Part shown: in pieces, positions 16,219 to 51,000 of the stretch | Layout: each line of letters begins with the position of its first letter | How positions within the stretch are numbered: position 1 is the stretch's first letter | Assembly (NCBI RefSeq): GCF_003334335.1 | Contig: NZ_QOWQ01000006.1 | Direction: 5' to 3' (one strand) | From: Escherichia coli | GTDB taxonomy: Bacteria; Pseudomonadota; Gammaproteobacteria; Enterobacterales; Enterobacteriaceae | Length of the DNA: 64,000 bases | Translations under genes and position numbers: made by a program | Notes under the pieces: model-generated | What the model was told of the DNA's origin: nothing | The model's database searches: none | What the model saw: only the letters and a program-made list of their open reading frames with translations

Positions 16219-16322
16219 ACGTTCCTCCTTTATATGAACTCACCGGAGCAGGCTCCGGTGAGGTGTTGTGAACTTAAGTCTGGACGAAATGCCCGAAAAC
16301 GAAAGTTTGAGGCGTAAAAAGC

Positions 16323-22029: not shown

Positions 22030-22250
22030 ATTGCCTGATGCGCTACGCTCATCAGGCCTACAAAATCTATTGCAACATGTTGAATCTTCGTGCGTTTGTA
22101 GGCCGGATAAGGCGTTCACGACGCATCCGGCATTAGGTGCTCAATGCCTGATGCGCTACGCTTATCAGGCCTACAAAATCTATTGCAACATGTTGAATCT
22201 TCATGCGTTTGTAGGCGGATAAGGCGTTTTCGCCACATCAGGTAAGAGTG
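22030..22250. repeat. REP/BIME cluster with roughly 107-bp direct duplication
   Basis: gcctgatgcgctacgct(c/t)atcaggcctacaaaatctattgcaacatgttgaatcttc(g/a)tgcgtttgtaggc... occurs twice (about 22034-22115 and 22141-22222) with palindromic REP units. Confidence 0.85.
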
Positions 22251-23903: not shown

Positions 23904-24944
23904 TCATTTATCGGAAGACGCCTGCCACAGATTCAGCTCGCCATCGGCGATATGCTGATCAATCTGCGCCAGCTCCTTGGTGCTAAATGTCAGATTATTC
24001 AGCGCCTGCACGTTCTCCTCTAGTTGCTCCGCGCGGCTGGCACCAATCAATACCGACGTCACGCGATCATCTTTCAGCAACCAGCTTAACGCCATTTGCG
24101 CCATTGATTGTCCACGCTGCTGTGCCATTTCATTCAATAAGCGCAGGCTGTTGAGGTTGGCTTCGGTAAGCATTTTCGGTGTCAGACCACGAACTTTATT
24201 CCCTTCACGATGCATCCGTGAATCTTGCGGAATGCCGTTGAGATATTTTCCGGTCAGCAATCCCTGAGCCAGAGGAGTAAAGGCAATACAGCCCACGCCG
24301 TTATTTTGCAGGGTATCCAGCAGGCCGCTTTTATCCACCCAGCGGTTCAGTAAATTGTACGAAGGTTGATGAATTAACAGCGGAATTTTCCACTCGCGCA
24401 GCAACTCGACCATTTTTTGCGTCCGCTCTGGCGAGTAAGAGGAGATCCCGACATACAGCGCCTTACCGCTTTGTACCGCATGAGCCAGCGCAGAGGCGGT
24501 TTCTTCCATCGGCGTATTTTCATCGACGCGATGAGAGTAAAAGATATCGACATACTCAAGCCCCATACGCTTCAGGCTTTGGTCGAGGCTGGCGAGCAGG
24601 TATTTACGTGAACCGCCAGAGCCGTAAGGGCCGGGCCACATATCGTAGCCAGCCTTGGTAGAGATAATCAGTTCATCGCGATAAGCGGCAAAATCCTCCC
24701 GCAGCAGGCGACCAAAGTTCTCTTCTGCGCTTCCTGGAGGCGGCCCGTAATTGTTGGCTAAATCAAAGTGCGTAATGCCCAAATCAAACGCTTTACGCAG
24801 GATCGCACGCTGTGATTCCAGCGCGTTAACGTGACCGAAATTGTGCCATAAACCGAGCGATAACGCGGGCAGGCGTAAACCACTTTTTCCGCAATAGCGG
24901 TATTGCATCTGCCCGTAACGTTCGGGATTCGCTAACCAGACCAT
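23904..24944 (-). CDS. gpr: L-glyceraldehyde-3-phosphate reductase (AKR family), Gpr/YghZ
   Basis: 346-aa ORF MVWLANPERYGQMQYRYCGKSGLRLPALSLGLWHNFG... Confidence 0.93.
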   Translation of the reverse strand: MVWLANPERYGQMQYRYCGKSGLRLPALSLGLWHNFGHVNALESQRAILRKAFDLGITHFDLANNYGPPPGSAEENFGRLLREDFAAYRDELIISTKAGYDMWPGPYGSGGSRKYLLASLDQSLKRMGLEYVDIFYSHRVDENTPMEETASALAHAVQSGKALYVGISSYSPERTQKMVELLREWKIPLLIHQPSYNLLNRWVDKSGLLDTLQNNGVGCIAFTPLAQGLLTGKYLNGIPQDSRMHREGNKVRGLTPKMLTEANLNSLRLLNEMAQQRGQSMAQMALSWLLKDDRVTSVLIGASRAEQLEENVQALNNLTFSTKELAQIDQHIADGELNLWQASSDK

Positions 24945-25100
24945 GACCTCTCCTTTCCACCGTTCAATTTCGAAACAATGTTTCTAGTTTAGCGATTCGC
25001 CAGCGCGTATCCCGTAGTCTGGCTCACAGAGTGACGAAAAACTGGGCAAAAACACGTGCTTATGCTTTGCTTAAAAAAACACCAACTGAGGAGTGCAACG

Positions 25101-25985
25101 ATGCCGCGTTTAACCGCCAAAGATTTCCCACAAGAGTTGCTGGATTACTATGACTATTACGCTCACGGGAAAATCTCGAAACGTGAGTTCCTCAACCTTG
25201 CGGCGAAGTGCGGTAGGCGGGATGACGGCATTAGCGTTGTTTGATTTGCTCAAGCCAAATTATGCGCTGGCGACTCAGGTAGAGTTTACCGACCCGGAAA
25301 TTGTTGCTGAGTACATCACGTATCCTTCGCCAAATGGTCACGGCGAGGTGCGGGGTTATCTGGTGAAGCCCGCAAAGATGAGCGGCAAAACGCCAGCCGT
25401 AGTGGTGGTGCATGAGAATCGTGGACTGAATCCGTATATCGAAGATGTGGCACGGCGAGTGGCGAAGGCGGGGTATATCGCCCTGGCACCTGACGGCTTA
25501 AGTTCCGTTGGAGGTTATCCGGGAAATGATGATAAAGGTCGTGAGCTGCAACAGCAGGTTGATCCAACAAACTGATGAATGATTTCTTTGCCGCAATTGA
25601 GTTTATGCAACGCTATCCGCAAGCGACAGGCAAAGTGGGTATTACCGGATTTTGCTATGGCGGTGGCGTATCGAACGCGGCGGCTGTCGCGTATCCGGAA
25701 CTGGCCTGCGCGGTGCCGTTTTATGGTCGTCAGGCACCCACTGCCGATGTGGCGAAGATTGAAGCGCCTTTACTACTCCACTTCGCGGAACTGGACACCC
25801 GAATCAACGAGGGCTGGCCTGCTTACGAGGCGGCGTTGAAAGCCAATAATAAGGTTTATGAGGCGTATATCTATCCGGGGGTTAATCACGGATTCCATAA
25901 TGATTCCACGCCCCGTTATGACAAATCTGCCGCCGATCTTGCCTGGCAAAGGACACTGAAATGGTTCGATAAATATCTCTCCTGA
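25101..25985 (+). pseudogene. yghX: dienelactone-hydrolase family gene yghX disrupted by two frameshifts
   Basis: Three consecutive ORF pieces (25101-25244, 25150-25575, 25575-25985) in frames 0/1/0 together reconstruct one alpha/beta hydrolase ([11 protein letters not shown]...KWFDKYLS); breaks near 25210 and in an A-run near 25570. Confidence 0.8.
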
Positions 25986-26103
25986 TAGGTTTATCTCTTA
26001 CGGGATTACGTCTTAAACAAGCATGAAAAAATAGCGTGCGCAAAAGTCGTTCTTTGCCTAAAATATCGCTATATATGACAATATATAGCGAATGAGGTGA
26101 ACG

Positions 26104-26391
26104 ATGAATAACCATTTTGGTAAAGGCTTAATGGCGGGATTAAAAGCAACGCATGCCGACAGTGCGGTTAATGTGACAAAATTCTGTGCCGATTATAAAC
26201 GCGGTTTTGTATTAGGCTACTCACACCGGATGTACGAAAAGACCGGAGATCGCCAGCTTAGCGCCTGGGAAGCGGGTATTCTGACGCGCCGCTATGGACT
26301 GGATAAAGAGATGGTAATGGATTTCTTTCGTGAGAATAATTCCTGTTCTACGTTGCGCTTTTTTATGGCCGGTTATCGCCTCGAAAATTGA
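26104..26391 (+). CDS. yghW: DUF2623 protein YghW
   Basis: 95-aa [39 protein letters not shown]... Confidence 0.85.
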
Positions 26392-33129: not shown

Positions 33130-33225
33130 TAGCTTTCGTAGGCCTGATAAGACGCGGCAGCGTCGCATCAGGCATTGTGCACGATTGCCGGATGCGGCGT
33201 GAACGCCTTATCCGGCCTGGATGGC
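33130..33225. repeat. REP elements between hybG and yghU
   Basis: gtaggcctgataagacgcg...cgcatcaggc and gccggatgcggcgtgaacgccttatccggcc palindromic units. Confidence 0.75.
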
Positions 33226-40432: not shown

Positions 40433-41782
40433 TTGGCGGGTTTTAACATCAAACATTGGTTTGCAGATGGCGCGTTTCGCACCATTATTCGCAATAGCGC
40501 CTGGTTAGGCTCCAGTAATGTCGTGAGCGCCTTGCTGGGTCTGTTGGCGCTCTCGTGTGCCGGTAAAGGGATGACGCCCGCCATGTTTGGCGTACTGGTG
40601 ATTGTGCAATCGTACGCCAAGTCGATCAGCGATTTTATTAAGTTTCAGACATGGCAACTGGTGGTTCAGTACGGAACACCAGCATTAACCAACAATAATC
40701 CGCAGCAATTCCGCAATGTCGTCTCATTTTCCTTCTCGCTGGATATCGTCAGCGGCGCGGTGGCGATTGTCGGTGGCATTGCCTTACTGCCATTCCTTTC
40801 CCATTCATTAGGTCTGGATGACCAAAGTTTTTGGCTGGCAGCGCTCTATTGCACGCTCATTCCTTCAATGGCTTCCTCCACGCCGACCGGCATTCTGCGT
40901 GCGGTAGATCGCTTCGATTTAATTGCTGTACAGCAGGCGACGAAACCTTTTCTGCGCGCAGCGGGGAGCGTCGTAGCCTGGTATTTTGACTTTGGTTTTG
41001 CGGGTTTTGTTATTGCCTGGTACGTGTCGAATCTGGTTGGCGGCACCATGTACTGGTGGTTTGCCGCGCGCGAATTACGCCGCCGAAATATCCATAACGC
41101 CTTCAAATTGAATCTGTTTGAGTCTGCCCGATACATTAAAGGCGCGTGGAGTTTTGTCTGGTCAACCAACATTGCCCACTCCATCTGGTCGGCGCGTAAC
41201 TCGTGCAGCACAGTGTTGGTGGGGATCGTGTTAGGACCCGCTGCCGCCGGGTTATTTAAAATCGCCATGACATTCTTCGACGCCGCCGGAACGCCAGCGG
41301 GTTTGCTGGGTAAAAGTTTTTACCCAGAGGTGATGCGTTTAGATCCGCGCACCACCAGACCGTGGTTGTTAGGTGTGAAGTCCGGTTTACTGGCGGGCGG
41401 AATCGGTATTCTGGTGGCGCTCGCGGTGTTGATCGTCGGCAAGCCGCTCATTTCGCTGGTGTTTGGCGTTAAGTATCTCGAAGCGTATGACCTGATTCAG
41501 GTGATGCTGGGCGCAATTGTGATTTCGATGCTGGGCTTCCCTCAGGAGTCATTGCTATTGATGGCGGGAAAACAGCGCGCTTTTCTCGTGGCGCAAACCA
41601 TCGCCTCAATCGGCTACATCGTATTGCTGTTCATGTTCTGTCATCTGTTTGGTGTGCTGGGAGCAGCGTTTGCTTACTTCGGTGGGCAATGTCTGGACGT
41701 GGCGCTCTCGTTAATTCCAACCTTAAAGGCATTTTTTCAGCGCCATTCCTTGCTTTATAACGCAGCCGGAGAGAAATCCTGA
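40433..41782 (+). CDS. yghQ: MOP-superfamily (Wzx-like) flippase YghQ, full length
   Basis: 449-aa polytopic ORF; start codon uncertain (track start is TTG); stop overlaps the next gene start (TGATG). Confidence 0.8.
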   Translation: MAGFNIKHWFADGAFRTIIRNSAWLGSSNVVSALLGLLALSCAGKGMTPAMFGVLVIVQSYAKSISDFIKFQTWQLVVQYGTPALTNNNPQQFRNVVSFSFSLDIVSGAVAIVGGIALLPFLSHSLGLDDQSFWLAALYCTLIPSMASSTPTGILRAVDRFDLIAVQQATKPFLRAAGSVVAWYFDFGFAGFVIAWYVSNLVGGTMYWWFAARELRRRNIHNAFKLNLFESARYIKGAWSFVWSTNIAHSIWSARNSCSTVLVGIVLGPAAAGLFKIAMTFFDAAGTPAGLLGKSFYPEVMRLDPRTTRPWLLGVKSGLLAGGIGILVALAVLIVGKPLISLVFGVKYLEAYDLIQVMLGAIVISMLGFPQESLLLMAGKQRAFLVAQTIASIGYIVLLFMFCHLFGVLGAAFAYFGGQCLDVALSLIPTLKAFFQRHSLLYNAAGEKS

Positions 41783-42606
41783 TGATGAGAAAATATTTCC
41801 CGCTTGAGGCGAGCGAGCGTCTATTTGTTGCGATTGAAGAAGATGATGTCGTTGATGCACAGGTTAGTTTGCCGCCGACTATTGCACTAAGTTGTACCAC
41901 CGAAATCATTCATGATAATTACGCGTTATGCCTGCAATTCTGGCTCAATGGCGTTGATCGTCAGGAGTTACTGCGTTTAGTTCGCAAACAAGCCAAAGGC
42001 GATGAGCTGACTGCTGATGAGCGCAAACAATTTAAATACATGCGAGCGCGCTACAAGCACCTGCGTTTTGCGCAACGGCTGTATTTAAAGAAGCATCAGG
42101 CCGGATTTTTATTCGGCAAAACGACCGTTTTTCTGGGGCGTTTTCAGGACGGCTTTCGTAACGGTAAGAAAAATATTGTGTCGTATTACGGCAACCTGTT
42201 ACGGATTTATTTAAGCTCTCCGGTCTGGTCGTTGGTGAACTATTCATTACGCCATAGCCAGTTAGAAAGCGTAAGCAGTTTTATTGCCTATCGGCAAAAG
42301 CAAATGCATACCCTGAAAGAGATTATTGCCAAACCGCGACTAACCGGTAGGGAATTTCATGATGTGCGAAAAATCATCAGCCAGCAGGTTTCTTATTACG
42401 ACACCTTAAGATCGCTTGATCCTGAAAATAAAGAGGCGTTACAGATATCCCGCTTCCTCGCCGCCATTAATGGCCTGATGGGAGATAAACACGACGACAT
42501 GGTGGCGGATGATATGGAAAACCGCCAGTCGTATGATGCACCGGTGGCGCTGGATAGCGATATTCGTCAGCGCTTAGAGCTGCTGATTTCGCGTTTTCCG
42601 CTATAG
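41782..42606 (+). CDS. hypothetical cytoplasmic protein (274 aa), coupled to yghQ
   Basis: ORF MMRKYFPLEASERLFVAIEEDD...; 1-nt overlap with the yghQ stop; no motif I can recognise. Confidence 0.6.
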   Translation: MMRKYFPLEASERLFVAIEEDDVVDAQVSLPPTIALSCTTEIIHDNYALCLQFWLNGVDRQELLRLVRKQAKGDELTADERKQFKYMRARYKHLRFAQRLYLKKHQAGFLFGKTTVFLGRFQDGFRNGKKNIVSYYGNLLRIYLSSPVWSLVNYSLRHSQLESVSSFIAYRQKQMHTLKEIIAKPRLTGREFHDVRKIISQQVSYYDTLRSLDPENKEALQISRFLAAINGLMGDKHDDMVADDMENRQSYDAPVALDSDIRQRLELLISRFPL

Positions 42607-42614
42607 CCGGAGCA

Positions 42615-43178
42615 ATGATGTCATCTCGTTTGATTATTGCGTTGATTATCATGCTCTTAGCCCCGGGTGTGCAGGCACACAATTTCGTCACTGGCAAAAC
42701 GGTTACCCCTGTTTATATCCAGGAAGGCGGCGAGCTGCTTCTGAATAGCGACGACGAAATTCACTACCAAAAGTGGAACAGCACACAATTAGCGGGAAAA
42801 GTCCGCATTATTCAGTATATCGCCGGGCGTAAGTCGGCGAAGAAAAAGAACTCACTGTTAATTAAAGCGGTTGAAGCGGCAAACTTTCCGCAGGATCGTT
42901 TTCAGCCCACCACCATTGTGAACACCGATGATGCCATCTTTGGTACTGGCTATTTTGTTGTTGGCAAAATCGAAAAAAATAAACGCCGCTATCCGTGGGC
43001 GCAATTCGTTATTGACGGCAATGGACAGGGACGCGTTGCCTGGCGCTTGCCGGAGCAGAGTTCAACCATTCTGGTGCTGAATAAAGCCGGGCAAATTCAG
43101 TGGGCAAAGGACGGCAGCCTGACGCCGGAAGAGGTAGATCATGTCATTGCGTTGGCGCAGAAACTGATCAATGAATAA
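42615..43178 (+). CDS. periplasmic YtfJ/HI0045-like protein
   Basis: 187-aa ORF with signal peptide MMSSRLIIALIIMLLAPGVQA and motifs (AGKVRIIQYIAGR, TTIVNTDDAI, QWAKDGSLTPEEV) that I recall from YtfJ. Confidence 0.65.
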   Translation: MMSSRLIIALIIMLLAPGVQAHNFVTGKTVTPVYIQEGGELLLNSDDEIHYQKWNSTQLAGKVRIIQYIAGRKSAKKKNSLLIKAVEAANFPQDRFQPTTIVNTDDAIFGTGYFVVGKIEKNKRRYPWAQFVIDGNGQGRVAWRLPEQSSTILVLNKAGQIQWAKDGSLTPEEVDHVIALAQKLINE

Positions 43179-43208
43179 AAAACTCAAAGGATTGAGGGCG
43201 TTAGTGAG

Positions 43209-44279
43209 ATGAAGCTGGTTGAACACTACATCATGCGTGGTACGCGCCGTCTGGTGCTGATTATCGTCGGTTTTCTGATCTTTATTTTCGCCAGCTACTC
43301 CGCACAGCGTTATCTGACCGAAGCGGCAAATGGGACATTAGCTCTTGATGTTGTGCTGGATATCGTTTTCTACAAAGTACTGATTGCACTGGAGATGTTG
43401 TTACCTGTTGGTCTGTATGTGTCAGTTGGCGTGACGCTAGGGCAGATGTATACCGACTCGGAAATTACCGCTATCTCTGCGGCGGGGGGCAGTCCGGGAC
43501 GCTTGTACAAAGCCGTTCTTTATCTGGCGATACCGCTAAGTATTTTTGTCACCCTTCTGTCGATGTATGGTCGTCCGTGGGCTTATGCGCAGATTTATCA
43601 ACTGGAGCAGCAGTCGCAGTCGGAGCTGGATGTTCGCCAGTTGCGGGCAAAGAAATTTAACACTAACGATAACGGACGAATGATCCTTTCGCAGACGGTT
43701 GATCAGGATAATAATCGCCTGACTGACGCGCTGATTTATACTTCTACTGCCAATCGAACCCGCATTTTCCGCGCCCGTTCGGTTGATGTGGTTGACCCAT
43801 CACCCGAGAAACCGACCGTTATGTTGCACAACGGCACTGCCTATCTTATCGATCATCAGGGGCGTGATGACAACGAACAGATCTACCGTAATCTGCAATT
43901 ACATCTGAATCCGCTGGATCAAAGCCCTAACGTCAAACGCAAAGCGAAATCGGTCACGGAGCTGGCGCGCTCCGTCTTTCCAGCCGATCATGCCGAACTG
44001 CAATGGCGGCAAAGCCGTGGCCTGACCGCATTGTTGATGGCGCTGCTGGCCATTTCATTAAGTCGGGTAAAACCGCGGCAAGGGCGATTTTCAACGTTAT
44101 TGCCACTGACGTTGCTGTTTATTGCCATTTTTTATGGCGGTGACGTCTGCCGTACGCTGGTGGCTAACGGCGCGATTCCCCTCATTCCTGGTTTGTGGTT
44201 AGTACCCGGACTCATGCTAATGGGCCTGCTGATGCTGGTCGCACGCGACTTCTCTTTGCTGCAGAAATTTTCCCGATGA
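43209..44279 (+). CDS. LptF/LptG-family (YjgP/YjgQ) permease, first of pair
   Basis: 356-aa ORF; YTDSEITAISAAG and KPRQGRFSTLLP resemble the LptF motifs YTESEIT and NPRQGR; multiple TM segments with a large periplasmic loop. Confidence 0.75.
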   Translation: MKLVEHYIMRGTRRLVLIIVGFLIFIFASYSAQRYLTEAANGTLALDVVLDIVFYKVLIALEMLLPVGLYVSVGVTLGQMYTDSEITAISAAGGSPGRLYKAVLYLAIPLSIFVTLLSMYGRPWAYAQIYQLEQQSQSELDVRQLRAKKFNTNDNGRMILSQTVDQDNNRLTDALIYTSTANRTRIFRARSVDVVDPSPEKPTVMLHNGTAYLIDHQGRDDNEQIYRNLQLHLNPLDQSPNVKRKAKSVTELARSVFPADHAELQWRQSRGLTALLMALLAISLSRVKPRQGRFSTLLPLTLLFIAIFYGGDVCRTLVANGAIPLIPGLWLVPGLMLMGLLMLVARDFSLLQKFSR

Positions 44280-45355
44280 ATGTTTTCAGCCGCTATTTAA
44301 TCCGTCATCTCTTTCTCGGTTTTGCCGCCGCCGCAGGGCTATTGCTGCCGCTTTTTACCACCTTCAACCTGATTAACGAACTGGATGATGTCAGCCCGGG
44401 CGGTTATCGCTGGACTCAGGCGGTGCTGGTGGTGCTAATGACCTTACCGCGCACACTGGTCGAACTTTCGCCATTTATCGCCTTATTGGGAGGGATTGTC
44501 GGCCTGGGGCAGTTATCGAAAAACAGTGAGCTTACCGCCATTCGCAGCATGGGGTTTTCTATCTTCCGTATTGCACTGGTGGCGCTGGTTGCAGGGATAT
44601 TGTGGACTGTTTCGTTAGGCGCGATAGATGAGTGGGTAGCGTCGCCATTACAGCAACAGGCGTTGCAAATCAAATCGACCGCCACCGCGTTGGGGGAGGA
44701 CGATGACATTACCGGCAATATGCTGTGGGCCAGGCGTGGTAATGAATTTGTGACGGTGAAATCGCTGAACGAGCAGGGCCAGCCGGTGGGCGTGGAGATT
44801 TTTCATTATCGCGACGATCTCTCGCTCGAATCCTACATTTATGCACGCAGTGCCACCATTGAAGACGACAAAACGTGGATCCTGCATGGTGTGAATCATA
44901 AAAAATGGCTGAATGGCAAAGAAACGCTGGAAACATTAGATAATCTTGCCTGGCAATCGGCCTTCACCAGTATGGATCTTGAAGAGTTATCAATGCCGGG
45001 CAATACTTTTTCTGTCCGTCAGCTTAATCATTACATCCATTATTTGCAGGAAACCGGGCAACCCAGCAGCGAATACCGCCTTGCACTGTGGGAAAAACTG
45101 GGGCAACCCATCCTGACCCTGGCGATGATTTTGCTGGCTGTGCCGTTTACCTTTAGCGCCCCGCGCTCGCCAGGGATGGGTAGCCGTCTCGCTGTAGGTG
45201 TCATCGTTGGCTTACTCACCTGGATCAGCTATCAAATCATGGTCAATCTGGGATTGCTATTTGCGTTGAGCGCACCTGTTACCGCGCTCGGTTTACCGAT
45301 AGCGTTTGTGCTGGTGGCGTTGAGCCTGGTGTATTGGTATGACAGACAACATTAA
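44276..45355 (+). CDS. LptF/LptG-family (YjgP/YjgQ) permease, second of pair
   Basis: Start at MNVFSRYLIRHLFLGF via ATGA overlap with the upstream stop; LptG-like motifs (ELTAIRSMGFS, RSPGMGSRLAVG); the track ORF is extended 27 codons upstream. Confidence 0.75.
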   Translation: MNVFSRYLIRHLFLGFAAAAGLLLPLFTTFNLINELDDVSPGGYRWTQAVLVVLMTLPRTLVELSPFIALLGGIVGLGQLSKNSELTAIRSMGFSIFRIALVALVAGILWTVSLGAIDEWVASPLQQQALQIKSTATALGEDDDITGNMLWARRGNEFVTVKSLNEQGQPVGVEIFHYRDDLSLESYIYARSATIEDDKTWILHGVNHKKWLNGKETLETLDNLAWQSAFTSMDLEELSMPGNTFSVRQLNHYIHYLQETGQPSSEYRLALWEKLGQPILTLAMILLAVPFTFSAPRSPGMGSRLAVGVIVGLLTWISYQIMVNLGLLFALSAPVTALGLPIAFVLVALSLVYWYDRQH

Positions 45356-45356
45356 A

Positions 45357-45383
45357 CCCGCCGTGGCGCAACACCACGGCGGG
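45357..45383. terminator. bidirectional hairpin between the permease operon and the SPT-like gene
   Basis: cccgccgtgg-cgcaaca-ccacggcggg inverted repeat. Confidence 0.6.
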
Positions 45384-45459
45384 CTCACATTACTGCTTCA
45401 GAGTAGCAAATGCCTGAATGATGGCATCGATTTGCTCACGACTGTGAGCAGCGTTTACG

Positions 45460-46569
45460 CTACAGCGCAGCAGCGTGATGCCTGCAGGCGCGGCAGGTGG
45501 CAGGTGGCAGGATAAGATTCACATAAACGCCCAGCGAAATAAGCTCGCGCCAGATGCGTAAACCGTCCTCTTTCGAACCGATTATTACCGGCACTACCGG
45601 GCTAATATGTGAACTTAACTCATAACCCAGTTTTTGCAGACCGTCATACAGATGGTTGGCATTATCCATCAGCTTTTGCCGCAGCTCTGGTTGTGTGGCA
45701 ATAGTTCTTAACGACGAGCGCACGGTCGCAATGCAGGACGGAGAAGGAGAGGCGGTAAAAATATACGGGCGGCTGCCGTAGCGCAGCACTTCCATCGCTT
45801 CCGAACCGACAGCAAAACCGCCAATCGAGGCCAGACTTTTACTGAAGGTGCCAACGATAATATCCACATCATCTTCAACGCCGACAGCTTCAGCCAGTCC
45901 GCGCCCCGTTGCGCCTAACACGCCAAACGAATGCGCTTCATCGACAATCAAATAACCACCGAGACGACGTTTGATATCAACAATTTCCGCTAACGGCGCA
46001 ACGTCACCGAGCATGCTGTAGATACCCTCAACGATGATAATCGCCTCTTTCGCCCGTTCACCGAGGCGAACCATGCGCCGTTCCAGATCTTTAGCATCGT
46101 TATGGCGGAAACGAATAATTTCCGCGCCACCGAGAGAACAGGCGTCATAAATACTGGCGTGGCTGTCGGCATCCAGTAACACCACGGCGTTATGGTCGGC
46201 AAGTGCGCTGATGACGCCTAAATTAGCGGTATAACCGGTTGAAAAAACGATAGCGGTAGGGCGATTGAAAAACTCGGCAATCTCTTTCTCTAACGCCAGG
46301 TGCGGCGCATAACTGCCGTTTGCCATACGAGAACCGGTGGTGCCGGTACCTTGGGCCGCTAACGCGGCCTGACCTTCGCTGATGGCATCATGATTAAAGG
46401 TTAAACCGAGATAATTATTGGTCCCGGCCAGAATCACTTTTTTATTGCCGATCCGGCCTTCGGTGGCGGAATACACTTCATCAATACAGGTGCCAAACGG
46501 TGTTAACCCGTTGTCACTAAATTGCAGTCGCTCGCCAGCAAGGCGCGCATATTTATCGTATAGCCCCAT
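45460..46569 (-). CDS. serine palmitoyltransferase-like alpha-oxoamine synthase (PLP-dependent), 3' end apparently frameshifted
   Basis: 369-aa ORF with GTFSKS PLP-lysine motif and class-II aminotransferase fold; C-terminus TCRACRHHAAAL is atypical, and an alternative frame restores a canonical end at the TAA at 45390-45392. Confidence 0.8.
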   Translation of the reverse strand: MGLYDKYARLAGERLQFSDNGLTPFGTCIDEVYSATEGRIGNKKVILAGTNNYLGLTFNHDAISEGQAALAAQGTGTTGSRMANGSYAPHLALEKEIAEFFNRPTAIVFSTGYTANLGVISALADHNAVVLLDADSHASIYDACSLGGAEIIRFRHNDAKDLERRMVRLGERAKEAIIIVEGIYSMLGDVAPLAEIVDIKRRLGGYLIVDEAHSFGVLGATGRGLAEAVGVEDDVDIIVGTFSKSLASIGGFAVGSEAMEVLRYGSRPYIFTASPSPSCIATVRSSLRTIATQPELRQKLMDNANHLYDGLQKLGYELSSHISPVVPVIIGSKEDGLRIWRELISLGVYVNLILPPATCRACRHHAAAL

Positions 46570-46817
46570 TATTTATTCTCCAGCCATGGAAGTAGAGTTT
46601 CCATTAATTGCGCAGGGGTTTTGACATCCAGCAGAATATTAATAGGAATGGAAATATCGAATCTGTCTTCCAGCATCATTAAGAGATCCATCACTTTGAT
46701 CGACTCCAGGCCAAGATCGTTGACGAGATCGCTGTCGGGCTTAATTTCCACACCGTTTTCGACCAAATCCTGTAAACAGGAAAGGATGTAATCCATTACT
46801 ATTTCACGATTTACCAT
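46569..46817 (-). CDS. acyl carrier protein (phosphopantetheine-binding)
   Basis: 82-aa acidic ORF with DLGLESIKVMDL Ser-attachment motif; 1-nt overlap with the downstream SPT-like start. Confidence 0.8.
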   Translation of the reverse strand: MVNREIVMDYILSCLQDLVENGVEIKPDSDLVNDLGLESIKVMDLLMMLEDRFDISIPINILLDVKTPAQLMETLLPWLENK

Positions 46818-46848
46818 AGAAACGTTAACACACCTTTAAACAAGACAA

Positions 46849-47763
46849 TCAAAATAGCCCGTTGCGTAATGCGTGTTCCAGGCTAATCCCGGGAAACCAA
46901 TTAATATCTTCAGAAATACGGTTATTACTTGCCGACCAGTCGGCGTGGGTTAATTCACGAATTTTCGAGCGGGTCAGCATAGGTTCTTTACCTGCCAGGC
47001 GACTCAACGCGGTACTGATATCCGCAAGGCCGGTGAGTACCGGCAGAGGAATGCCAACCATTCGCACGGAACCGCAACGGGCGTCGGCGGCAAGTTGCTG
47101 TACGCGTTGCCAGTCATAGCCGCCGGCGACGCCATCGCATAATTCATAGGTTTGCGTCTGTATAGTTTCGGCGCTTAACCACTGACCCACTGCTTGCGCG
47201 AAATCGGTGACGTGCAGAAAAGAGAGCTGTGTATCTGGCGCACCAAGTCGTGGCAGCAGGCCGCGCAGCATCCAGTCAAACAGCGGTTTTAACTCTTTAT
47301 CGCCGGGACCATACACGGCTGTCGGGCGAAAAACGCCCAGCGTAATTTCGTCCGCCATTGCTGCCAGTCGTTGCTCGGCGACGTATTTGGATTTTGCATA
47401 CCAGGAGAGCTCGGGATGGCGCGCCGCCAGCGAAGAGATAAACAGAAAACGTTGGCAAAAGCCGCTCTCTTTTGCTGCTTGCATCAGGCGCAGGCTGCCG
47501 TCAACGTTACAGCGGGTGAAAATCTCTTCTTTGTGCCCGCGCACTTGCCCGGCGCAATGGACCACTACGCTGGCTCCGGCAACCAGCTCGCTAAGTGAAT
47601 GAGTATCTTCCAGCGAACCGCGCACCCAGGTGAGATTATCATTGACGTGAGCGCGGGCAGTACGCGTCAATGCGCGAACGTGAAAGCCGCGGGCGAGCAG
47701 GTTATCGATAATATATTTACCGATAAACCCGGTAGCGCCCGTCACCGCGACAGTTTGATTCAT
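46849..47763 (-). CDS. NAD(P)-dependent epimerase/dehydratase-family reductase (candidate 3-ketosphinganine/ceramide reductase)
   Basis: 304-aa ORF with VTGATGFIGKYI Rossmann motif and YAKSK catalytic dyad; 4-nt overlap with the upstream adenylase gene. Confidence 0.8.
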   Translation of the reverse strand: MNQTVAVTGATGFIGKYIIDNLLARGFHVRALTRTARAHVNDNLTWVRGSLEDTHSLSELVAGASVVVHCAGQVRGHKEEIFTRCNVDGSLRLMQAAKESGFCQRFLFISSLAARHPELSWYAKSKYVAEQRLAAMADEITLGVFRPTAVYGPGDKELKPLFDWMLRGLLPRLGAPDTQLSFLHVTDFAQAVGQWLSAETIQTQTYELCDGVAGGYDWQRVQQLAADARCGSVRMVGIPLPVLTGLADISTALSRLAGKEPMLTRSKIRELTHADWSASNNRISEDINWFPGISLEHALRNGLF

Positions 47764-49481
47764 GCCAGGGATTCCTGCACATTAAGACTGGCAGCATAAG
47801 CCTTCTGATAACGTTTTTTCGCTTCCGCACGGGCAGGCTTGCCGGAGGACGTTCGGGGAATACTGTGGGGCGGCAACAGATCGATAGCCGCGGTCACGCC
47901 AAATTCGCTTTGGATCCGTGCCGCCAGCGCGTGGATAAGCTGCCCGCGACGTTCTTCGTCGCTGATCCGACACTGGATCTGCAAAATGATTTTTTCCTGG
48001 GCGGTAACAAAAGCAATCGCATCGCCAGAATGAATTTCCGGTTCCTGTTCCGCTATATATTCAATATCCTGCGGCCAGATATTACGGCCACGAATAATAA
48101 TCAGATCTTTAATGCGTCCGGTGACATACAGATAACCGTCCAGCAGATAACCGAGGTCGCCGGTGTCTAACCAGCCCGTCGCGGCAATCTCGTCTTGCGA
48201 AACCTGGTCGCCAAAGTAACCGCTCATCAGACTGGGACCGGAGATGCAAATATGGCCTACCACACGTTCCGCGACCGGCATACCTGCTTCATTGCGGATT
48301 TCAATACCATGTTCCGGCAACGCTTTGCCGCAGTTGACGAAAGTCGATACGGCGCGTGTCTCTGCACCCGGCGCGACGGCTTTACCCTGATATTCGAGGA
48401 TGTCGCGATCCACTTCGTTAACCACAACCCCGGAGGCTTCATCAGAGAAGCTGACAGCCAGCGCATTTTCTGCCAGTCCGTAGCACGGCATGAAAGTTTT
48501 ATTGTCAAAGTTAACCTGACGGAAACATTCAGCGAATTGATGGAGTTGTTCTGCGGAGATGGGTTCTGCACCAATACCAGCGACGCGCCAGCAGGAAAGA
48601 TCCAGTTCAGCGAGATCTTTTTCATTCACGCGGCGCTGGCACAATTCATAGCCAAACGGCGGCGCAACGGAAACGGTGCCGCGATTTTTACTGATCAATT
48701 TAAGCCATTGCAGAGGACGCATGGCAAAATCCTGAGTGCGCAAATAATCTACTGAAAGCTGCGTGGCGACGGGGGTCAGGAGAAAGCCGACCAGTCCCAT
48801 ATCATGGTAGAAAGGCAGCCAGGAGACGCAGCGGTCGCCAGGGCGTAATTTAATGCCGTCGTGGCTTATAGCACGTAGATTAGCCATCACTTCGCGATGG
48901 GTGATAATGACGCCACGGGGAAAACGGGTGCTGCCGGAGGTGTACTGGAGGTAGGCGATATCGTTCGGAACTGGACGCTGGAGCGCAACATCGGCTTCCG
49001 GTAATGCCTTAAACCAGGCGTGGCTTAAAACATGTAATTCGGGGTTGTCATGCGTCGCGGCATTGACCAGTGGCAACCACTCATCACCAGTGATAATGGC
49101 TGCGGGCTGGCAACTTGCCAGTAAACCCTGCAATTTGGCGCTCCAGGAATCCCGCTGACCAACGCCCATTGGAATCGCCAACGGGACGGCGACTAAGCCG
49201 GCATACTGGCAGGCAAAAAAAGCCTCTACGAACTCGCTACTTGTTTCGGCAATCAGTGCCACGCGATCGCCTTTTTTCAGGTTCAGCGATAACAACCGCT
49301 TCGCACCAGCTTCGGCACGTGCTTTTAACGTCTGATATTCCAGTTGATCTTCAAGTTGGCAACGTCTGTCATAAAAATTCATTCCGGCGCTACTCAGAGC
49401 GGCGTAGTCCAAAGCATCAACAAGCGTTGGAAAATCGGCATAGCGCATAGGTAGGGAATGCGTAAAGATTTTATTAGACAT
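47760..49481 (-). CDS. fatty acyl-AMP ligase / acyl-ACP synthetase-like adenylating enzyme
   Basis: About 573 aa with AMP-binding core YTSGSTRFPRGV and TGDLGY motif; start uncertain (track starts at GTG 49490, ATG at 49481). Confidence 0.8.
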   Translation of the reverse strand: MSNKIFTHSLPMRYADFPTLVDALDYAALSSAGMNFYDRRCQLEDQLEYQTLKARAEAGAKRLLSLNLKKGDRVALIAETSSEFVEAFFACQYAGLVAVPLAIPMGVGQRDSWSAKLQGLLASCQPAAIITGDEWLPLVNAATHDNPELHVLSHAWFKALPEADVALQRPVPNDIAYLQYTSGSTRFPRGVIITHREVMANLRAISHDGIKLRPGDRCVSWLPFYHDMGLVGFLLTPVATQLSVDYLRTQDFAMRPLQWLKLISKNRGTVSVAPPFGYELCQRRVNEKDLAELDLSCWRVAGIGAEPISAEQLHQFAECFRQVNFDNKTFMPCYGLAENALAVSFSDEASGVVVNEVDRDILEYQGKAVAPGAETRAVSTFVNCGKALPEHGIEIRNEAGMPVAERVVGHICISGPSLMSGYFGDQVSQDEIAATGWLDTGDLGYLLDGYLYVTGRIKDLIIIRGRNIWPQDIEYIAEQEPEIHSGDAIAFVTAQEKIILQIQCRISDEERRGQLIHALAARIQSEFGVTAAIDLLPPHSIPRTSSGKPARAEAKKRYQKAYAASLNVQESLA

Positions 49482-49857
49482 ATACACCACGAAAAAATTG
49501 GATATCCAAAATAAAATGACAATAATGCGGTGGATTATATAGGCATAAAAGATAAATGAGATAGTATTTTCATCAGTGTGAAAATGAACATTGATTTAAA
49601 TAATGAGTTTGAGTTTTTTTGTTTTTATTGTGAATGATATTTAATTTATGAATATATTAAGAAGAAGCCTTGTCCGGTCGCCTTAAATCGACAAAAGGCA
49701 TTGTGGCGCTTCTGTGTAGTCTCTGACCTTATCGTAATCATTAATAAATACTATTTATTCGTCGTTTGTATTCATTGGGTTGATTATTAAGGTGCCGTTC
49801 GTTGCTGTTGCAACCTGTTTGTCACCGTTAATTATTTGTTACCCACAGAACAGAACT

Positions 49858-51000
49858 ATGGAATGCGATCTGCTGATGATTAAAATTGAAAAAGTAATTA
49901 ATAAAAATGACCTTAAGGCATTTATCGCTTTTCCGTCATCACTTTATCCCGACGATCCAAACTGGATACCCCCTTTATTCATTGAACGCAACGAGCATTT
50001 GTCTGCGAAAAATCCGGGGACGGACCATATCATCTGGCAGGCGTGGGTAGCAAAAAAAGCGGGGCAGATAGTTGGGCGTATTACCGCGCAAATAGATACC
50101 TTGCACCGCGAGCGTTACGGCAAAGATACCGGTCATTTCGGCATGATTGACGCCATTGATGATCCGCAGGTTTTTGCCGCGTTGTTTGGCGCAGCGGAAG
50201 CGTGGTTGAAGTCACAAGGTGCAAGTAAGATCAGCGGTCCTTTCAGCCTGAATATCAATCAGGAAAGCGGATTACTGATTGAAGGTTTTGACACACCACC
50301 CTGTGCGATGATGCCACACGGCAAACCGTGGTATGCCGCGCATATTGAACAACTGGGTTATCACAAAGGCATTGATTTACTGGCGTGGTGGATGCAGCGA
50401 ACCGATCTCACTTTCTCTCCGGCGCTAAAAAAACTGATGGATCAGGTGCGCAAAAAGGTGACCATTCGCTGCATCAATCGTCAGCGGTTTGCCGAAGAGA
50501 TGCAGATCCTGCGTGAGATTTTCAACTCTGGCTGGCAGCACAACTGGGGATTTGTGCCGTTTACCGAACATGAATTCGCGACCATGGGCGATCAACTTAA
50601 ATATCTGGTGCCGGACGATATGATCTATATCGCTGAGATTGATTCTGCACCCTGCGCGTTTATTGTCGGCTTGCCGAACATCAACGAGGCGATTGCCGAT
50701 CTGAACGGATCGCTCTTTCCCTTCGGCTGGGCAAAATTGCTGTGGCGTTTGAAAGTCAGCGGTGTGCGAACTGCGCGAGTACCGCTGATGGGCGTGCGCG
50801 ACGAGTATCAGTTCAGCCGCATCGGCCCGGTGATTGCGCTGTTATTGATTGAAGCCTTACGCGATCCGTTTGCCCGCCGGAAGATCGATGCGCTGGAGAT
50901 GTCATGGATCCTCGAAACCAATACAGGCATGAATAACATGCTGGAACGCATTGGGGCGGAGCCGTACAAGCGTTACCGATTGTATGAAAAGCAGATTTAA
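49858..51000 (+). CDS. yghO: YghO, intact (candidate N-acyltransferase; pseudogene in K-12)
   Basis: About 380 aa from MECDLLMIKIEK (track ORF starts at TTG 49780); divergent from the lipid operon; start uncertain. Confidence 0.7.
   Translation: MECDLLMIKIEKVINKNDLKAFIAFPSSLYPDDPNWIPPLFIERNEHLSAKNPGTDHIIWQAWVAKKAGQIVGRITAQIDTLHRERYGKDTGHFGMIDAIDDPQVFAALFGAAEAWLKSQGASKISGPFSLNINQESGLLIEGFDTPPCAMMPHGKPWYAAHIEQLGYHKGIDLLAWWMQRTDLTFSPALKKLMDQVRKKVTIRCINRQRFAEEMQILREIFNSGWQHNWGFVPFTEHEFATMGDQLKYLVPDDMIYIAEIDSAPCAFIVGLPNINEAIADLNGSLFPFGWAKLLWRLKVSGVRTARVPLMGVRDEYQFSRIGPVIALLLIEALRDPFARRKIDALEMSWILETNTGMNNMLERIGAEPYKRYRLYEKQI

Follow-up and report, generated by a model that had tools for sequence, protein, structure and literature searches.

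The yghX gene in the stretch of Escherichia coli DNA analysed here (64,000 nt, called the window throughout) has almost certainly been inactivated by two small deletions that arose one after the other, leaving a locus from which an N-terminal stump is still made and no hydrolase is produced. That yghX is a pseudogene is already known and is ordinary, as it is annotated as such and the window copy is identical to that of K-12. What is added here are the base-exact positions of the lesions and their ordering, the frequencies of both in the population, and the connection, made explicit, of the pseudogene with the small protein YqhI and with the family PF23678: one "validated, stress-induced small protein" of K-12 is the translated stump of the yghX pseudogene, which goes unmentioned in the papers that describe this protein (PMC6001520, PMC11429745). 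The locus also provides a clean and datable case of stepwise decay, with a 2-nt deletion followed by a 1-nt deletion and then, in some strains, by IS1; in other E. coli lineages, the sampled alleles that are intact stay strongly constrained.

Locus and gene layout

The features of the locus are collected in Table 1. yghX is flanked by yqhA (to 23864, + strand) and gpr/yghZ (23904-24944, - strand) on one side and by yghW (26104-26391, + strand) and hybO (from 26580, + strand) on the other, and MG1655 coordinates were mapped to the window with 3147740-(x-25101), where x is the position in the window. The first-pass annotation had let the small ORF at the head of the gene begin at a GTG at position 25056, as the mechanical ORF does. 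The gene starts instead at ATG 25101, because this codon is preceded by a GAGGAG and the GTG is not; inspection of the sequence upstream of GTG 25056, ATG 25150 and ATG 25575 revealed no Shine-Dalgarno-like motif at any of the three.

Table 1. Features of the yghX locus, with positions given in the window.
Feature	Position	Strand	Description and basis
Whole yghX pseudogene	25101..25985	+	885 nt vs 888 nt when intact; PGAP span identical; aligned to intact genes
Shine-Dalgarno GAGGAG	25088..25093	+	7 nt upstream of the yghX/yqhI start codon; read from the sequence
N-terminal stump ORF, yqhI (b4755)	25101..25244	+	47 aa: 36 native YghX residues and an 11-residue out-of-frame tail; TGA stop
Predicted Tat-type signal peptide coding region, 58 residues	25101..25272	+	Extended n-region, S-K-R-E-F-L motif, h-region, A-L-A cleavage site; interrupted by lesion 1
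Lesion 1 junction	25208..25209	+	2 nt of codon Tyr37 (TAT) gone; frame 0 to frame 1; DNA alignment
Middle segment	25209..25568	+	Open in frame 1 only; YghX residues 38 to about 157; NF041440 positions 34-155
Lesion 2	25568..25568	+	Single C vs CC in the intact gene (codon Thr157, ACC); back to frame 0
C-terminal segment, frame 0	25569..25985	+	Residues 158-295 and stop; profile positions 158-292
Nucleophile elbow G-F-C-Y-G, Cys186 codon	25653-25655	+	Inside the C-terminal segment
His264 codon	25887-25889	+	Inside the C-terminal segment
Pseudogene yghX (b4658), curated MG1655 span	25150..25985	+	Begins at an internal frame-1 ATG; contains only lesion 2

A consensus scan of the + strand upstream of yghX did not find a sigma-70-like site, a result that is uninformative as the stump is demonstrably expressed, and no Rfam family overlaps the yghX locus. 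Matches above the Rfam gathering threshold do occur in the window, among positions 58464-58685 (- strand), 16257-16320 (- strand), 33141-33217 and 22101-22171; they are to the C0719 sRNA (298 bits), the ES173 sRNA (99 bits) and two REP-derived naRNA4, and are unrelated to yghX. Another feature of the neighbourhood is a perfect palindrome with 11-bp arms (TCGCTATATAT-TGTC-ATATATAGCGA) at 26066-26091, between yghX and yghW and just before the start of the latter. It was scored as terminator-like on the minus strand by the scan and is a candidate operator or protein-binding site, which it resembles more.

The two deletions

Three-frame translation of the locus recovers a single hydrolase sequence that begins in frame 0, passes into frame 1 and returns to frame 0, as the first-pass annotation had proposed. 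The lesions themselves were called from a DNA alignment of the window with K-12 MG1655, ETEC1730, O157:H7 and a UPEC strain, in which the intact gene (O157:H7, UPEC) has 888 nt and 295 codons and the window copy 885 nt. Lesion 1 is a 2-nt deletion between 25208 and 25209 that turns AAG-TAT-GCG into AAG-TGCG and destroys codon Tyr37; the loss of TA and the loss of AT are indistinguishable from the alignment. Lesion 2 is a 1-nt deletion at 25568 that changes CCAACCAAA to CCAACAAA, with one C of a CC pair gone, so that CCA-ACC-AAA becomes CCA-AC-AAA and Thr157 is broken.

The original placing of the breaks, near 25210 and 25570, is no more than 2 nt away from the aligned sites, and the junction peptides read at that time, DPT-K-LMNDFF included, agree with the intact protein. 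The second break is therefore where it was thought to be, although it does not fall in a poly-A stretch as had been claimed: the longest run of A near lesion 2 is AAA (25569-25571), the lost base is a C, and the 15 nt on either side of each lesion contain no homopolymer as long as 4 nt.

The last third of the gene is back in frame 0 because the two deletions sum to 3 nt. This restoration is without consequence, since nine frame-0 stop codons lie between the lesions, the first at 25242, and the idea that the second deletion is a compensatory repair of the first was rejected on the same ground. Translation from the start codon ends after 47 codons at the stop at 25242-25244, and the product is thus truncated.

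The three fragments of the window fit consecutive parts of the NCBIfam YghX profile (NF041440), positions 1-35, 34-155 and 158-292 of 292, with E values that are far beyond chance (1e-14, 2e-69 and 5e-78). Their scores of 54.2, 233.9 and 262.2 bits are each below the curated cutoff of 460 bits when taken alone, which is as expected because this member of the family is broken. The intact YghX of O157 reaches 584.9 bits and belongs to the family by that cutoff; this whole-protein score is that of the O157 protein, from which the repaired window sequence differs by 2 residues.

The protein encoded by intact yghX

Intact YghX matches the Pfam DLH domain (PF01738) over the full model, positions 1-217 of 217, with an E value of 2.9e-48. 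Ahead of this domain residues 1-36 match PF23678, the "YqhI-like" family (E value 8e-20). With GFCYG, the Cys nucleophile elbow, at residues 184-188 and NHGF, with the putative catalytic His, at residues 263-266 the protein belongs to the dienelactone hydrolase family.

Signal peptides of the Tat pathway have a consensus S/T-R-R-x-F-L-K, a hydrophobic h-region and an A-x-A cleavage site. The N-terminus of YghX reads S-K-R-E-F-L-N, with K-R and not the canonical R-R, followed by a hydrophobic stretch and then by A-L-A before a T. This N-terminus of 58 residues is strongly conserved across genera, and in 41 of 58 diverse full-length relatives RR followed by x-F-L aligns to K27-R28 of YghX. Profile searches of NCBIfam and Pfam returned no match of YghX to a Tat-signal model. 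Judged from the motif and its conservation, the N-terminus is likely a Tat-type signal peptide, in a K-R variant in the enterobacteria, and export is predicted; YghX would therefore probably be periplasmic.

The mature domain of the O157 protein is the one in PDB 4ZV9, the construct of which begins at residue 59, just past A-L-A. A conserved Cys-Asp-His triad has been described in 4ZV9 (PMC8533429), and in a 2026 preprint the protein was purified as "EcoDLH" and shown to lack promiscuous phosphotriesterase activity. Neither source (PMC8533429, 2026 preprint) gives a native substrate.

Ancestral state and selection

A comparison with intact orthologues from other Enterobacteriaceae had been suggested as a check on the reading, and it supports it. 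Single-ORF orthologues of 294-299 residues and 85-91% identity are present in six other genera (Citrobacter koseri, Pseudescherichia, Enterobacter, Kosakonia, Leclercia and Silvania), and they conserve the residues at both lesion sites, (K/R)-Y-(A/T)-V-G-G at the first and D-P-T-K-L-M-N-D-F-F at the second. Intact alleles are also found across diverse lineages of E. coli, among them O157:H7, ST131 and CFT073, and the intact state is ancestral.

The intact alleles are under strong purifying selection, with a median pairwise dN/dS of 0.053 over 51 pairs from 11 intact E. coli alleles, which shows that yghX, where intact, is a functional gene under constraint. When the three missing bases are restored, 7 synonymous changes and 1 nonsynonymous change separate the window copy from the nearest of the intact alleles sampled. 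The pseudogene is young and, apart from its two deletions, otherwise undecayed; these 8 substitutions are too few to judge whether selection has been relaxed since inactivation. The first-pass annotation had called the pseudogenisation "established", which is apt in that the lesions are fixed in a lineage, although not in the sense of a gene that has otherwise decayed.

Allele frequencies and the order of events

The yghX locus is present in all 5,426 complete E. coli genomes. Alleles were counted with junction-spanning probes in which every megablast seed is forced across the lesion; the probe for the deleted allele at site 1 is a 31-mer with the diagnostic GTG in every seed. Site 1 is deleted in 1,505 of the 5,426 genomes and matches the intact probe in at least 3,491. 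At site 2 the deletion is present in 1,199 genomes and the intact form in 4,222; as percentages these counts are skewed by the many laboratory K-12 derivatives among the genomes. Both deletions are thus real heritable alleles and not errors.

Some 430 genomes match neither probe for site 1. A third lesion was suspected in these genomes and the suspicion was dropped, as the sampled examples, from a class that was not enumerated in full, proved to be intact or doubly deleted alleles that differ by SNPs and nothing more. CFT073 has an intact yghX with two SNPs, for example, and WCHEC000837 a doubly deleted yghX with one SNP.

Lesion 1 occurs alone in ETEC1730 and in O68:H12 97.3, which indicates that the lesions were sequential and independent. 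In 40 evenly spaced ranking rows the locus has a span of 1051 where both lesions are present, of 1052 with lesion 1 alone and of 1054 where the gene is intact, and no allele with lesion 2 only was seen among these rows. The simplest history would have lesion 1 arise earlier and lesion 2 later, in a sub-lineage of about 1,200 genomes that includes K-12 and the window. The genomes with the site-2 lesion would then be nested within those with the site-1 lesion, a nesting that is drawn from samples and not from a full intersection of the genome sets.

The history of the locus can thus be outlined as follows. The product of intact yghX was an enzyme of 295 residues, similar to dienelactone hydrolases and with a cysteine as nucleophile, the first 58 residues of which are probably a signal peptide of the Tat type. 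In the lineage that includes K-12 and the window a deletion, probably the older of the two, removed 2 nt inside signal-peptide codon Tyr37, and translation from the intact start now runs for 11 codons out of frame to the stop at 25242-25244. The other, probably later, deletion removed 1 nt from codon Thr157, and the distal third, nominally in its original frame, is unreachable past nine in-frame stops. With the ribosome-binding site and start codon intact and the promoter evidently working, the 47-residue stump (YqhI), probably without a function, is still made.

Furthermore two strains have suffered IS1 events in yghX, which are further and independent damage. In STK78-E an IS1 is inserted at the equivalent of 25958, on top of a doubly deleted gene, and in NCTC9041 an IS1F-associated rearrangement at the equivalent of 25889 has left the last 96 nt of yghX joined to the brnTA/mdtM region. 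Such extra events on broken or other alleles are consistent with dispensability of the gene.

Alternative explanations of the broken frame

It is exceedingly improbable that yghX is read by programmed frameshifting, in which a +1 shift near 25210 and a -1 shift near 25570 would yield full-length YghX. Two such shifts would indeed restore the original frame, and the frame-1 stop overlaps an in-frame ATG (TGATG, 25573-25577) in an arrangement that has a superficial likeness to recoding or coupling. However, the gene would have to be recoded twice, at separate places, and neither a slippery sequence at the shift site nor a frameshift shared by the orthologues was found. The 10 nt permitted for the -1 shift (25563-25572, TCCAACAAAC) hold no X-XXY-YYZ heptamer, and the sole in-frame heptamer upstream, GGGAAAT at 25521, has five frame-0 stops after it. 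In the orthologues and in 72-78% of E. coli genomes the frame is uninterrupted, and alleles with a single lesion exist that could never give a full-length product. The first-pass annotation had preferred pseudogenisation to programmed frameshifting, and the intact alleles, the single-ORF orthologues, a dN/dS of about 0.05, the lesion-1-only alleles and the lack of a slippery heptamer all argue for that preference.

Single-base indels are a common type of error in sequencing and assembly, and an artefact would leave the real yghX frame uninterrupted; resequencing had been named as the result that could overturn the reading. Such an artefact is vanishingly unlikely here, as neither lesion lies in a homopolymer, the curated MG1655 reference has both deletions, and both recur in 1,199 independent complete assemblies that include many K-12 derivatives as well as isolates from dog, sputum and coriander. 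The objection is thereby effectively answered, and inactivation of yghX by two genuine deletions is the explanation that is retained, with no observation speaking against it.

YqhI, the translated stump

The translation of the ORF at 25101-25244 is identical to the published YqhI in 47 of 47 residues, and NC_000913.3 has the coding gene yqhI (CDS b4755) at the equivalent position. The first-pass annotation had recognised this small ORF as the N-terminal fragment of the hydrolase, and rightly so, as its first 36 residues are YghX 1-36; the name that it offered, yghY, does not hold, the stump being yqhI. We take yghY (b3000) to be an old name for the middle fragment that was later merged into b4658, and the span of b4658 (25150-25985) fits such an origin; a literature search for yghY gave unrelated matches only. 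YqhI is thus made up of YghX residues 1-36, which would be the Tat n-region and the first residues of the h-region if the signal peptide is of the Tat type, and of 11 out-of-frame residues.

YqhI was among the small proteins detected by means of a chromosomal SPA tag (VanOrsdel et al. 2018, PMC6001520), in which a match to a glycosyltransferase domain was also reported for it. Mg2+ starvation is reported to induce 17 small proteins, YqhI among them (Vellappan et al., 2025 preprint, PMC11429745); its induction was described as independent of PhoQP and the protein as putatively soluble. The reported solubility fits the loss of the hydrophobic core. Cells deleted for yqhI grew to a lower yield in low Mg2+, a defect that YqhI supplied from a plasmid failed to complement, and overexpression was without effect (PMC11429745). 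In neither paper is there any mention of a pseudogene, frameshift or hydrolase; yghX is never named in PMC11429745 and appears in PMC6001520, as "yghX_2", solely as a flanking gene.

The family to which YqhI has given its name points in the same direction. PF23678 has 36 positions and is precomputed on all 120 listed full-length orthologues of the YghX family, from which it follows that the "YqhI-like" family is the N-terminus of YghX hydrolases. Seen as a model, it appears to describe a Tat-type extended n-region (D-x-Y-D-x-Y-x-H-G ... R-R-x-F-L; 25101-25208) and not an independent family of small proteins.

It is very unlikely that YqhI has gained an independent function within the K-12 lineage, by the birth of a gene from a pseudogene remnant, for example through the retained Tat n-region motif. 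The stump is translated from the chromosome (SPA tag, PMC6001520), it is induced by Mg2+ starvation and its deletion reduces yield in low Mg2+ (PMC11429745), and no part of the signal peptide is better conserved than the 36 residues that it keeps. Against this, its expression is what an intact promoter, ribosome-binding site and ATG would give anyway, the 11-residue tail is arbitrary out-of-frame sequence, and the lesion is too young for a signal of selection; in addition the deletion phenotype resisted complementation and overexpression changed nothing. One form of co-option can be pictured, in which a soluble peptide with the K-R motif and n-region, deprived of the hydrophobic core, could act under Mg2+ limitation by titrating a Tat component or a partner that binds signal peptides. 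This form is quite improbable, and were it to hold, YqhI would document the birth of a functional small protein from a pseudogene that is still very young. More generally a functional role for the stump seems unlikely by a wide measure, given the published non-complementation.

A milder reading is that the PhoQP-independent induction of "YqhI" in low Mg2+ would report the ancestral regulation of yghX, in which case the data would suggest that in pathogenic E. coli the intact hydrolase, in the periplasm, has a role in Mg2+ stress. The growth defect of the yqhI deletion (PMC11429745) hints that the locus is not entirely inert, though plasmid YqhI gave no rescue. That YqhI is the stump of a broken yghX bears on how its expression, its conservation, PF23678 and the non-complementable deletion phenotype are to be read.

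Comparison with known systems

The closest comparison is with yghX (b4658) of K-12. The coding sequence in the window is identical to that of MG1655 over 25101-25985, and the neighbours (yqhA, gpr, yghW and hybO) are those of the window. Over 25000-26050 the sole difference is at position 25053, which lies between gpr and yghX, 48 nt ahead of the start of yghX/yqhI; the window has C there and K-12 MG1655 has T. The window strain is K-12-like and is not K-12 itself, with 13 SNPs and no indels over 1-41501 (41.5 kb). Further along, an 8.4-kb cluster (41502-49897) between yghO and yghQ stands where K-12 MG1655 has a 1.2-kb IS5 instead; its products include a fatty acyl-AMP ligase, a serine palmitoyltransferase, LptF/LptG-like permeases and an epimerase, and at least 80% of the segment is present in about 4,063 of the 5,426 complete E. 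coli genomes. From the presence of this segment it follows that the window strain predates or lacks the IS5-associated deletion.

Annotations of the locus differ in how much of the damage they record. RefSeq PGAP marks a pseudo "YghX family hydrolase, frameshifted" over the full 25101-25985 span in both K-12 and a strain identical to the window, whereas the curated MG1655 b4658 starts at 25150 and records one frameshift. The curated record thus splits the locus into a b4658 that runs from an out-of-frame internal ATG and a coding yqhI (b4755), and in this way the first frameshift is hidden. In the literature (PMC6001520, PMC11429745) YqhI, with which the stump is identical in 47 of 47 residues, is treated as stand-alone, in contrast to the link with YghX that is made here. 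The yghX gene serves as a neutral "pseudogene locus" for integration in many papers on strain engineering.

The intact YghX of O157:H7 (WP_001302757.1; PDB 4ZV9, "EcoDLH") differs from the repaired window sequence by 2 amino acids and has the same domain layout. In O157:H7 the gene is one 888-nt frame with a foldable product that has been crystallised and purified, whereas the window copy is broken. Finally, ClcD, or carboxymethylenebutenolidase (PDB 1DIN, PF01738), shares with YghX the alpha/beta-hydrolase DLH domain, the G-x-C-x-G elbow and the conserved His, although the two are distant in sequence (phmmer E about 1e-14). The 236-residue ClcD chains do not have the long Tat-type signal peptide predicted for YghX, and the alignment between the two begins only at YghX residue 71-73. 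Dienelactone hydrolysis is a putative activity of YghX.
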